A DNA stretch of 63,948 bases, filler included, from Candidatus Woesearchaeota archaeon (GTDB lineage: Archaea; Nanobdellota; Nanobdellia; Woesearchaeales; CG1-02-33-12): assembly GCA_018399355.1 (NCBI GenBank). It is 5 parts of 5 records of this genome, joined end to end, with 100 filler letters (N's around TTAATTAATTAA, not from the genome) between each part and the next. Parts side by side here need not be neighbours in the genome. Positions count along the whole stretch, not along the records: positions 16,484 to 32,851 come from JAGYOA010000019.1; 4 more parts are not named here. One strand, 5' to 3'. The position numbers are program-made. Shown piece by piece: positions 18,001 through 21,000 of this stretch. The first letter of the stretch is position 1. Each line of letters starts with the position of its first letter.

Positions 18001-21000
18001 ATTCAAGATCCCTATAGCAGGAGATATTGCTGAGAATCAACTAAATAAATGAGGTGAAATAAATGGTTAATTTTGAGGGAGCAATAAAAAGGCCTTTTAC
18101 TGATTTCAAAAAGCTTGGAATTGGCGCACTGATGTATATGATTCCAATAGTGAGCTTTATAACAATGTTTTTTGCGTTGGGGTATGGTCTTGAATGCGCA
18201 AAGACAGCAATGAAGAAAAAAGAAAAGCTGCCTGAATGGACAGACTGGGGAAACTTATTTCTTAAAGGACTTTCAGTTTTTGCTATTGCATTAATCTATG
18301 CGATACCTATTGGAATAATAGCAGCATTTATGGTTGTAAAAGCAATACAAGGAATAGGATCGTACAATACAATGTTATCTGTCCAACCAGAGATGATTAT
18401 GTCTAACATGGCTTCATTAGGATTAGGGTTCATCCTACTTATAGTTCTATTACTACTTTTATCCTATATAATGCCAATGGTATTGATGTTTTTTGTTGAC
18501 AAGTGGAAGTTTGGAGATGCATTCAAACTTGGAGAGATATTCAAAAAAGCATTTACAGGAAAATATTTTGTTGCATGGATAGTTATTATGGTATATTCAT
18601 TTGCCATTAGTTTTTTAGTTGGAATAGTATCAGCAATAACAGCGGTTACATTTATCCTTCCATTAATAATATCTGCATTTTTGAATATGGTCTTAATGAT
18701 AACATCGATGACAGTATTCGGAGAAGTATACAAAGAAATTAAATAACTATTTTTTTTATTTTATTCAAATTCTATTTTGCCGTTGAGATAAACGCCTTTG
18801 TGGAGCTTTACAGGCCTCCATTTATCCTCAACTAATTCAGCGTCAAGCCATTCTGCAAACTGCTCTGGATTTCCTATTGTTGCTGAAAGGCCCACTATCT
18901 GCACGTTTTTCAGAAGCTTTCTCAATATAGTTATGACTATTTCCAGTGTTGGGCCCCTTCCAGGATCATTTAATAAATGGATTTCATCAAAAATAACAAC
19001 TGCAATATTATTGAGCCATCCTGCCTTGTGCCTTATCAACGAATCAAATTTCTCGCTCGTAGTTATAATCAAGTCATAATCAATTAAATAAGGGTCTGCA
19101 GAATCAATATCTCCAATAGATAATGCTGTTCTTATAAAAGGATATTTTTCCTTGAATGAATTAAATTTTTCTGATGCCAGGGCTTTTAAAGGAACAACAT
19201 AAACTGCTTTTCCTTTTCTTTCCATTATATTTTTTGTGAAGGCGAGCTCTCCACATAATGTCTTTCCGCTTGCAGTTGGAGTGCATACAAGAATATTTTT
19301 TCCTTTCAACAGCCCTTTTTTTATTGACTTTTCCTGGCAGGGCCTAAGCTCCTTAACCTCTTTTTCCACAATATCATAAACCCTTTCAGGAATATTTCTT
19401 TTTATCTCTTTAATATGCATATTATTTTTTTTAAGACACATGATTTAAATACATTGTTGTTTTACCTGCAAATATTTATATAATCAAAACAATTTTATTA
19501 CATTATGAAAACAAAAAAACCAGAGATTATGGCCCCTGCAGGAAACTATGAGAGCCTTGTATCTGCAATAAATGCAGGAGCTGATGCAGTTTATCTTGGC
19601 GTTAGTGGGTTTAACATGAGGGCTACTGCAAAAAATTTTTCTGTTGAAGACCTTAATAAAATTGTTTCATACGCGCATAAAAGAAATGTAAAGGTCTATC
19701 TTACGGTTAACACGATAGTCTTTGAAGATGAACTTTCAAAAATTAAGGAAGTTGTTAAGAAAGCAAAAAAAGCAAATGTAGATGCAATCATATGCTGGGA
19801 TATGTCTGTGTTGTCAGAATGTAAAAAGCAAAAAATAGACGCTTTTTTGAGTACACAGGCAAGCGCAAGCAATTCTTATGCATGCGAGTTTTACAGAAAG
19901 GCAGGAGCAAAAAGAATCACCTTGGCTAGAGAATGCACTATTGAGCAGATTAAAAAAATAAAACAAAAAACAAAGGCAGAAATTGAAATATTTATACACG
20001 GGGCTATGTGCGTTAGCTTATCAGGAAGATGTTTCTTAAGCCAAAATATATTTGGAAAAAGTGCCAATAGGGGTGATTGCCTTCAACCGTGTAGGCGTGA
20101 GTATGAAATTAAAGATATAGAAGAAGGCCATTCCTTTATCTTAGGCAAAAATTATATTCTAAGTCCAAAAGACTTATGCACAATGCCTTTTATTGAAAAA
20201 ATTCTTGATTTGAATATTGAGGCATTAAAGATAGAGGGAAGGGCAAGAAGCCCTGAATACGTTGCAGAGGTTGTATCTTCTTATAGAAAAGCTGTTGACC
20301 TTTGGTATGAAAAAAAGCTTGATGAGAAAAAAAAGAAAATATTAATGAAAAAACTTGAATCAGTTTACAACCGTGGATTTCACTCAGGATTCTTTCTTGG
20401 AAAGCCCACAAAACAATGGTCAGAAACTTATGGCTCAAAATCAACACATAAAAAAGAATTTGTTGGTATTGTAAAAAACTTTTATTCAAAGCCAATGGCC
20501 GCTGAGATTATTATTCAAACTAATGAAGTCAAAAAAGGAGATACAATCATAATAATAGGCCCGACAACAGGAACAATAAAGCAAAAGGTAACATCTATGC
20601 AGGCTAATAATAAAACAATCAATAAGGCTGAAAAAGGAAAATCTGTTGGAATAAAACTTGAAAAAACAGCAAGAAAAAATGATAATGTTTATGTCTGGAA
20701 AAAAAGAAAAGATTAATTCAGCAGTTATTATTATTGTTCATGCTTCTTGATATTCTTATAAGGTCTGTTTTTTTCTTTTCAATGAATTTTTCGAGAATTT
20801 TTATTAATTCTTCATGCAGCTCCTTGTTTTTTATCTTTTTTGCAAGCTCATACGTATCAACAGTTGCCAGTTCATTCCAGAGTCCGAGCTGCTTTACAGT
20901 TTCATTAAATTCCTTTCTTTGGTTTTTTGAGGGAAAACTGAATGATTCATAAGAATCTATAGATGCCTTTACATCTGAACCATAAACTATATCAACCTCC

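Follow-up and report, generated by a model that had tools for sequence, protein, structure and literature searches.

Hel308 is encoded in the Woesearchaeales by two separate genes, unlinked and intact, and comparative sequence evidence makes it highly probable that the split arose once in the ancestor of the order and that the two proteins would assemble non-covalently into a working helicase. A survey's finding on one genome of the order (Candidatus Woesearchaeota archaeon, GCA_018399355.1; hereafter the source genome) had described Hel308 as lying in two pieces, and this proved correct: the genome holds an intact gene for an N-terminal half (N half) and, at the end of another contig, the beginning of a gene for the C-terminal remainder (C half). 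The window, i.e., the whole stretch of DNA that was analyzed, comprises 63,948 nucleotides including filler.

The N-Terminal Gene in the Source Genome

The gene for the N half is internal to contig C11 (window position 16484 onward), with both flanking genes intact, and its own reading frame is unbroken, with 219 codons followed by TAA (Table 1). Since its neighbors are a convergent DUF4013 gene on one side and a divergent U32 peptidase gene on the other, no in-frame continuation after the N half is possible. Two ATG codons could serve as its start, and we favored the one at 19420 over that at 19441 because the spacing of the TATA-like box fits the former. A gene similar to the FtsY/SRP54-type GTPase gene of this contig lies convergently downstream of the N half in seven relatives.

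Table 1. Features of the N-half gene and its surroundings (positions in the window).
Feature	Position	Strand	Evidence
N-terminal Hel308 piece, 219 aa: complete RecA1 and first 19 RecA2 residues	18761..19420	-	ORF, profile and structure matches
Walker A, motif I, residues 47–54	19259..19282	-	Sequence; pattern in 65/65 N halves
Walker B/DExH, motif II, residues 145–148	18977..18988	-	Sequence; 65/65 N halves
Motif III SAT, residues 179–181	18878..18886	-	Sequence; 65/65 N halves
C-terminal tail, residues 201–219: linker, first strand and hairpin of RecA2	18764..18820	-	PMC2636818 boundary, alignment, model, conservation
TATA-like box TTTAAA, 29 nt ahead of ATG 19420	19444..19449	-	Sequence; same position in 42/63 N halves
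Convergent neighbor, DUF4013 membrane protein, outside helicase	18063..18746	+	Pfam
Divergent neighbor, U32 peptidase family, outside helicase	19505..20716	+	Pfam
FtsY/SRP54-type GTPase gene, long charged N-terminal region, truncated at contig start	16484..17634	+	
PD-(D/E)XK nuclease (PDDEXK_1, DUF2800), two genes upstream of N half	20718..21911	-	

The best PDB and NCBIfam matches of the N-half protein were to Hel308/Hjm. It aligned with Pyrococcus furiosus Hjm over residues 8–215 (E = 2.8e-62) and with Archaeoglobus fulgidus Hel308 over residues 2–217, and it contained RecA1 with motifs I, Ia, II (DExH) and III. Structure comparison of its AlphaFold model (pLDDT 92) gave Z scores of 26–28 to Hel308/Hjm, and the modeled RecA1 superposed on the solved Hel308/Hjm structures with an rmsd of 1.2–1.5 Å over 196 residues.

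Position of the Cut

The survey had placed the cut between the two RecA domains, a description that did not hold. In the portion of the P. furiosus Hjm structure paper available, domain 1 is given as residues 1–197 and domain 2 as residues 198–399 (PMC2636818). Because Hjm residue 198 aligns to W201 of the N-half protein, the N half extends 19 residues into RecA2, and the cut thus lies about 19 residues inside that domain. Among 110 N-half loci, a count in which some genomes are represented twice, 107 ended 18–25 residues past the Trp of the WRP linker and one ended at 42, while the other two ran into a contig end and an N gap, respectively. The C halves started at, or a few residues past, the next residue of fused relatives, and the two halves tiled the PRK02362 profile without overlap (positions 1–218 for the N half and 223–717 for the C half).

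In the model, the tail consists of an extended stretch plus a hairpin, whose strands are at residues 209–212 and 215–218. Most Hel308/Brr2 chains superposed on residues 1 to approximately 202–205 only, which places the tail outside the rigid RecA1 body. We compared tail identity at matched RecA1 identity and obtained values of 0.51, 0.58 and 0.66 for split proteins vs. 0.45, 0.47 and 0.57 for fused ones (at a core identity of approximately 0.6, 0.58 for split pairs vs. 0.47 for fused pairs); the hydrophobic pattern of the tail was also kept in the split proteins. The first strand of RecA2 in SF2 proteins sits at the edge of the sheet, where its partner is the strand that follows motif VI. The greater conservation of the tail in split than in fused proteins suggests strand complementation, and the sequence comparisons suggest residues 201–219 as a candidate docking element for the C half. 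An MI-APC analysis of 100 rows gave a covariation signal across the halves that was too weak to interpret; its top pair comprised tail residue 208 and a residue just before motif VI, which may reflect no more than kinship.

The C-Terminal Gene

The C half is a separate gene of approximately 517 aa, unlinked to the N half; as the C-half query we used P0002 from G142 (517 aa). When the C half of a relative was compared with the source genome by tblastn, it matched C57:3563-3649 (29 aa, 76% identical), which is the extreme end of the 3650-bp contig C57, so that only the start of the C half is assembled. A profile search for PF21280 found no match in the contigs of the source genome, whose assembly, in 85 contigs, is fragmented, most of the C half being absent from it. 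Attempts to extend C57 from public runs left its end uncovered by any contig of the best DNA run; two contigs of another study start inside the C-half start region, one of which reaches the end of the stretch, and the missing letters were not recovered. No RNA runs matching C57 were listed in a search of public runs.

A TTTTAAA box lies 29 nt upstream of the C-half ATG on C57, with two tRNA genes ahead of it, a tRNA-Asn and an intron-bearing tRNA (C57:3327-3522, L312). ARAGORN called the latter Ser in the source genome, Ala in G142 and Ile in other relatives, a call that depends on where the intron is placed. One public-run contig skips the 40-nt intron region of the tRNA upstream of the C half, and a tRNA was found within 400 nt upstream of 13 of 59 C halves.

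The C half contains the PF21280 ratchet domain (above cut-off) and the winged helix HTH_61, and aligns to Hjm residues 229–713. RecA2 motifs IV, IVa (HHAGL), V and VI are borne by this separate gene, just the first 29 aa of which are assembled in the source genome, and an HhH motif was present in 54 of 59 C halves. At the C-terminus of many C halves stands QxxLxxF/Y, a motif that resembles a PIP box. P. furiosus Hjm has a C-terminal PIP box (PMC2636818).

Some C frames were unusually long. Five of 946–1056 aa (L313–L317, from G129, G072, G093, G079 and G087) carry intein-type insertions, four at motif V and one just ahead of motif VI; the motif V place is the same as in two fused outgroup genes (L083 and L084, from G189 and G233). 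The insertion in G129, the one of the five that was examined with Pfam, is a LAGLIDADG intein. Two more C frames were of similar length (1003–1029 aa). In G056 (L066:1468-3774), the C half is fused C-terminally to Methyltransf_30 (PF05430) in a 769-aa frame.

Distribution Across the Order

In a sample of 151 genomes drawn evenly from the order, we found an N-half match in 139, of which 138 were true orthologues and one (G006) was a match to a paralogue only; the other 12 were without a match. The order name Woesearchaeales is that given in the survey, and the records of the nearest loci are for the most part titled Woesearchaeota or Nanoarchaeota. All 138 orthologous N halves lay in open frames of 197–350 aa. 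Three further surveys added 2, 2 and 88 genomes, giving 230 distinct matched genomes (two unpublished genomes, G132 and G112, are included in our counts, and no claim depends on these two alone), and in all 230 the N half was in a short frame, none exceeding 350 aa. With the C half a separate gene, the survey's claim of an order-wide split into unlinked genes is upheld; the split is a fixed trait of this order, which comprises more than 100 families and has genomes of approximately 0.6–2.7 Mb. We considered whether the longest N frames were hidden fusions and rejected this: those of 350, 335, 319, 304 and 281 aa are upstream stop-to-stop extensions, and one of 288 aa contains an N gap where the stop would be expected.

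The C half was present in 142 of the 151 genomes, with a few partial matches (G062, G002). Both halves were found in 133 genomes, the N half only in five (including the source genome with its 29-aa C fragment), the C half only in nine, and neither in four. The halves stand approximately 37 kb (G016), 170 kb (G085), 332 kb (G025) and 423 kb (G097) apart in four single-contig genomes, and the split is therefore not an assembly break; the closest pair noted was 3.2 kb apart and divergent (G127). No conserved gene neighborhood was detected for either half, with 169 of 240 flanking ORFs being singletons and the largest clusters having 5–8 members.

When only genomes in 10 contigs or fewer were counted (n = 35), 33 had both halves, two had neither (G369 and G445), and none had just one; both halves were also missing together in G006. 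Counting two additional C-only genomes outside the sample (G382 and G408), the single-half state occurred in 16 fragmented genomes altogether. Two of these, G106 (C only) and G096 (N only), are rated 100% complete, in approximately 20 contigs each, and two congeners of G106 have both halves. We read the single-half genomes as assembly gaps, although some may be real.

Signs of Function and Proposed Assembly of the Halves

The motor motifs are kept in both halves: Walker A, DExH and SAT in all 65 N halves, and motifs IVa, V and VI in 59, 58 and 57 of 59 C halves. Values of dN/dS were 0.10–0.12 for the N halves (five pairs) and likewise 0.10–0.12 for the C halves (two unsaturated pairs); both halves are under purifying selection. 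The rate ratio of the two halves was 0.84 in split proteins, compared with 0.83 within fused ones. Pairwise distances of the N and C halves were correlated (Mantel r = 0.79 in 56 genomes; fused control, 0.90), a correlation that shared descent alone predicts. A TATA-like box starting at -34 to -24, with a peak at -29, preceded 42/63 N, 39/58 C and 26/39 fused genes, while Shine-Dalgarno-like words were rare (8 N, 1 C and 4 fused genes). From these upstream sequences, it is likely that the C half gained a promoter of its own, of the leaderless type.

In trees, both halves grouped with the fused Hel308 of sister orders, indicating orthology and not descent from another Ski2-like paralogue. Neither half reaches the whole-protein NCBIfam cut-offs, and a fused relative (G239) also falls below (718 of 887 bits). 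Hel308/Hjm is defined as a single polypeptide of approximately 700 aa, where here there are two genes; given this and the scores below the cut-offs, we regard the two-gene Hel308 as an orthologue in variant form, not as a canonical member. Many genomes of the order also encode a second Ski2-like helicase of approximately 650 aa with a DSHCT domain (L099, L100, L304, L305, L308–L311), which is presumably HelY/Mtr4-like; its gene is divergent beside the N-half gene in G353 and G354. The Ski2/Mtr4 group was found only in eukaryotes within the sample of PMC10946056. In the portions of text and supplement available from a Ski2-family phylogeny, no Woesearchaeota appear.

Under the reading that we favor, each gene would be transcribed separately as a leaderless mRNA, and the tail of the N half would insert into the RecA2 sheet of the C half as edge strand and hairpin. 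RecA1 would pack also on the winged-helix and ratchet domains (domains 3 and 4), as in one-chain Hel308, where these take part in the DNA tunnel (PMC2636818, in the text accessible). ATP would be held by motifs I–III of the N chain and its hydrolysis completed by motif VI of the C chain, so that the motor would be active only as a heterodimer. The complex would be expected to act as Hel308 does, in 3′-5′ unwinding at forks and in controlling recombination, and would be linked to PCNA through the PIP-like tail. Loss of Hel308 leaves cells with poor growth and sensitivity to cross-linkers, and motif IVa of RecA2 modulates unwinding and annealing activities that are separable (PMC10484726).

The halves might instead meet only loosely, with the C half also acting alone in DNA binding or strand annealing, by way of motif IVa of RecA2, the ratchet and the HhH, while docked on PCNA, and the N half serving as a separately supplied ATPase lobe that switches on unwinding. 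The separate promoter-like boxes and the lack of linkage are what this would predict, C-only genomes outnumber N-only ones (nine vs. five, plus the two further C-only genomes), and the tuning by motif IVa of separable unwinding and annealing (PMC10484726) is in keeping with it. We nevertheless consider it unlikely, as there is no single-half genome among the 35 well-assembled ones, the halves have been lost together in G369, G445 and G006, and a lone C half would presumably be without the first strand of RecA2.

Sister Orders and a Second Cut Site

The survey had described the fission as absent from sister orders, having left the shorter frames in other orders unopened. Among 69 matched genomes of other orders in our sample of the class, 56 had Hel308 in frames of at least 671 aa and 13 in shorter ones. 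We opened 12 of these 13 (the match in G171, which starts at a contig edge, was left out): eight ran off a contig end, one met an N gap, one was interrupted by a single TAG, and two were real splits at another site. None of the 12 stops at the woesearchaeal site, one of them being uninformative as it ends before that site. The part of the claim concerning the woesearchaeal site therefore stands, no instance having been seen elsewhere, while fission itself does occur, at a second site, in three of 27 matched genomes of one sister order. The frame with the TAG (L073, from G227) is an otherwise full-length Hel308 with this single in-frame codon at residue ~545, which may be an error, a pseudogene or recoding.

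The three genomes split at the second site, G241 (L096, L094), G266 (L097, L095) and G291 (L299, L296), belong to three families. The first gene ends with TAA at the same codon in all three, directly past motif VI, and the second piece, which has an ATG of its own, opens at the next strand. The distance between the pieces is 25 kb in one of the genomes, where they are on opposite strands, and 2.4 kb in another, where four other genes intervene; in the remaining one, they are on different contigs. G266 has two fused congeners; its pieces retain the upstream and downstream neighbors that the fused gene has, which is what a rearrangement would produce, and dN/dS against the fused congener was about 0.15. 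Grouping of G241, G266 and G291 as one clade was rejected (p-AU 0.0002). In both G241 and G291, a PHP-type gene lies downstream of the first piece. Since no fewer than two events are required by the supported branches and these two genomes have this neighbor in common, we count two or three origins.

Like the split of the Woesearchaeales, that at the second site yields two genes with their own ATGs and cuts in a RecA2 loop; unlike it, the motor motifs stay on one chain, and the distribution is sporadic (3/27, not one clade). That RecA2 has been cut in two different loops with the pieces kept supports reassembly by strand complementation.

Origin of the Split

Pyrococcus, Archaeoglobus and Sulfolobus each have Hel308 as a single chain, and the split is therefore the derived state. 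All trees were quick searches with SH-aLRT and no bootstrap. In the tree of the RecA1 region, 64 of 65 split genes fell on one branch (SH-aLRT 83), with the long-branched G114 outside. In the tree of concatenated halves, 55 of 57 grouped, the fused G239 falling among them and G114 and G091 apart from them, and under a mixture model 27 of 29 split rows were together. When the split rows were constrained to one clade, the likelihood exceeded that of the free search by 5.0 log units (p-AU 0.55, 56 rows), and by 15.2 log units (p-AU 0.79) in a set of 39 rows from which long and redundant rows, G114 among them, had been dropped. With G317 added, both fused genes of the order of G239 stood at the base of the split clade. 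These trees are compatible with a single origin, which we consider likely though not proven, and with the survey's proposal of a shared derived character. In the order of G239, a Hel308 match was found in two of 61 genomes, both fused and near the split clade, which may be due to wide loss of Hel308 or to transfer into two lineages.

We judge it very improbable that the split is ancestral for a wider group with re-fusions nearby, or that it arose repeatedly at the same site within the order. The placement of G239 among split rows in the free trees, with G114 and G091 outside in some, could be read in this way, and, as the second site demonstrates, breaks can recur at a single codon. The constrained clade, however, scores higher than the free search in both sets, the fused genes of the order of G239 move to the base once G317 is included, and a single chain is found both in the three distant genera and in 56 of the 69 matches in other orders.

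Comparison With Known Proteins and Split Systems

The archaeal Hel308/Hjm proteins (P. furiosus, 2ZJ2/2ZJ5/2ZJ8; A. fulgidus, 2P6R; Saccharolobus [Sulfolobus] solfataricus, 2VA8; PRK02362, NF040935) have the same five domains in the same order as the two-gene form, which shares with them all motor motifs, the PF21280 ratchet, the HhH and the C-terminal PIP-like motif. It differs in having two genes and two predicted chains, and in a cut that parts motifs I–III from motifs IV–VI.

Split proteins as such are known from the same class of archaea. In the portion of PMC3655853 available, those of Nanoarchaeum equitans and Nst1 include reverse gyrase, Lhr helicase, topoisomerase I, AlaRS and others, and Hel308 is not in its Table 1; the split halves of Nanoarchaeum are described there as unlinked and in need of post-translational assembly, and shared split sites have been used as derived characters. 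The split reverse gyrases of N. equitans and Methanopyrus kandleri are active as heterodimers (PMC4117796, in the part accessible). Like these, the two-gene Hel308 consists of unlinked, intact, conserved genes that tile one ancestral protein. The reverse gyrase of N. equitans, however, is cut between the helicase and topoisomerase modules, leaving the RecA domains together, whereas the Hel308 cut runs through the motor, and the Nanoarchaeum splits occur in two extremely reduced genomes, whereas that of Hel308 is fixed across a large order.

The N halves stop in TAA (36), TGA (16) or TAG (13). Read-through or recoding of this stop was rejected, as all three stops are used and no C half lies downstream. 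That a full-length Hel308 is rebuilt by splicing, whether at the RNA level or through a split intein, is hardly plausible in spite of the trans-spliced tRNAs and split polymerase of N. equitans (PMC3655853, Table 1) and the cis inteins within some C halves. Split-intein proteins have intein halves at the N-piece end and the C-piece start, and the ends of split Hel308 have none; no intein piece is seen at N-half ends, and Pfam finds none in P0001 or P0002. The N halves stop just past the conserved tail with this mixture of codons, the C halves have their own start codon and variable N-termini, no word beyond A/T runs is shared after the N stop, and the pairing of cognate 3′ and 5′ ends does not exceed that of shuffled sequences (mean z -0.25; 3/56 below -2). 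As for a decaying pseudogene or an assembly artifact, which the 85-contig source assembly with its largely missing C half might suggest, the wide separation in single-contig genomes, the same stop site across more than 100 families, dN/dS of about 0.1 and the position of the N gene between two intact neighbors within C11 refute it.

We found no paper on a split Hel308, judging by titles or the starts of abstracts, in a search with little coverage of subscription journals. If the halves do reassemble, this would be a natural SF2 helicase in which two chains together form the ATP site and which a highly diverse order of archaea has retained, and a ready-made split motor for the study of RecA1/RecA2 coupling and of whether annealing and unwinding in Hel308/HELQ are separable. 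We offer more speculatively, and hold as rather doubtful, the idea that the split is an adaptation and more than tolerated damage, in which the ATP lobe as a separately expressed subunit would close the helicase ring around single-stranded DNA in trans and so enable internal loading or, through supply of the N half, a switch of the PCNA-bound C half between annealing without ATP and unwinding driven by ATP. Were this so, then together with the at least two fissions in the second loop, the edge of the RecA2 sheet would be a natural, reused break point of the SF2 motor.

The split provides a rare genomic character for defining the order, and gene-content surveys will score Hel308 there as absent or broken. 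A survey of DPANN archaea reports a wide absence of repair genes, and Hel308 is not named in the portion available (PMC8407392). Many of the records that hold split N-half loci (L105–L184) are titled "uncultured Methanosarcinales archaeon," one "Bacteroidetes" and one "Methanobacteriota," titles that are probably depositor labels or binning errors.
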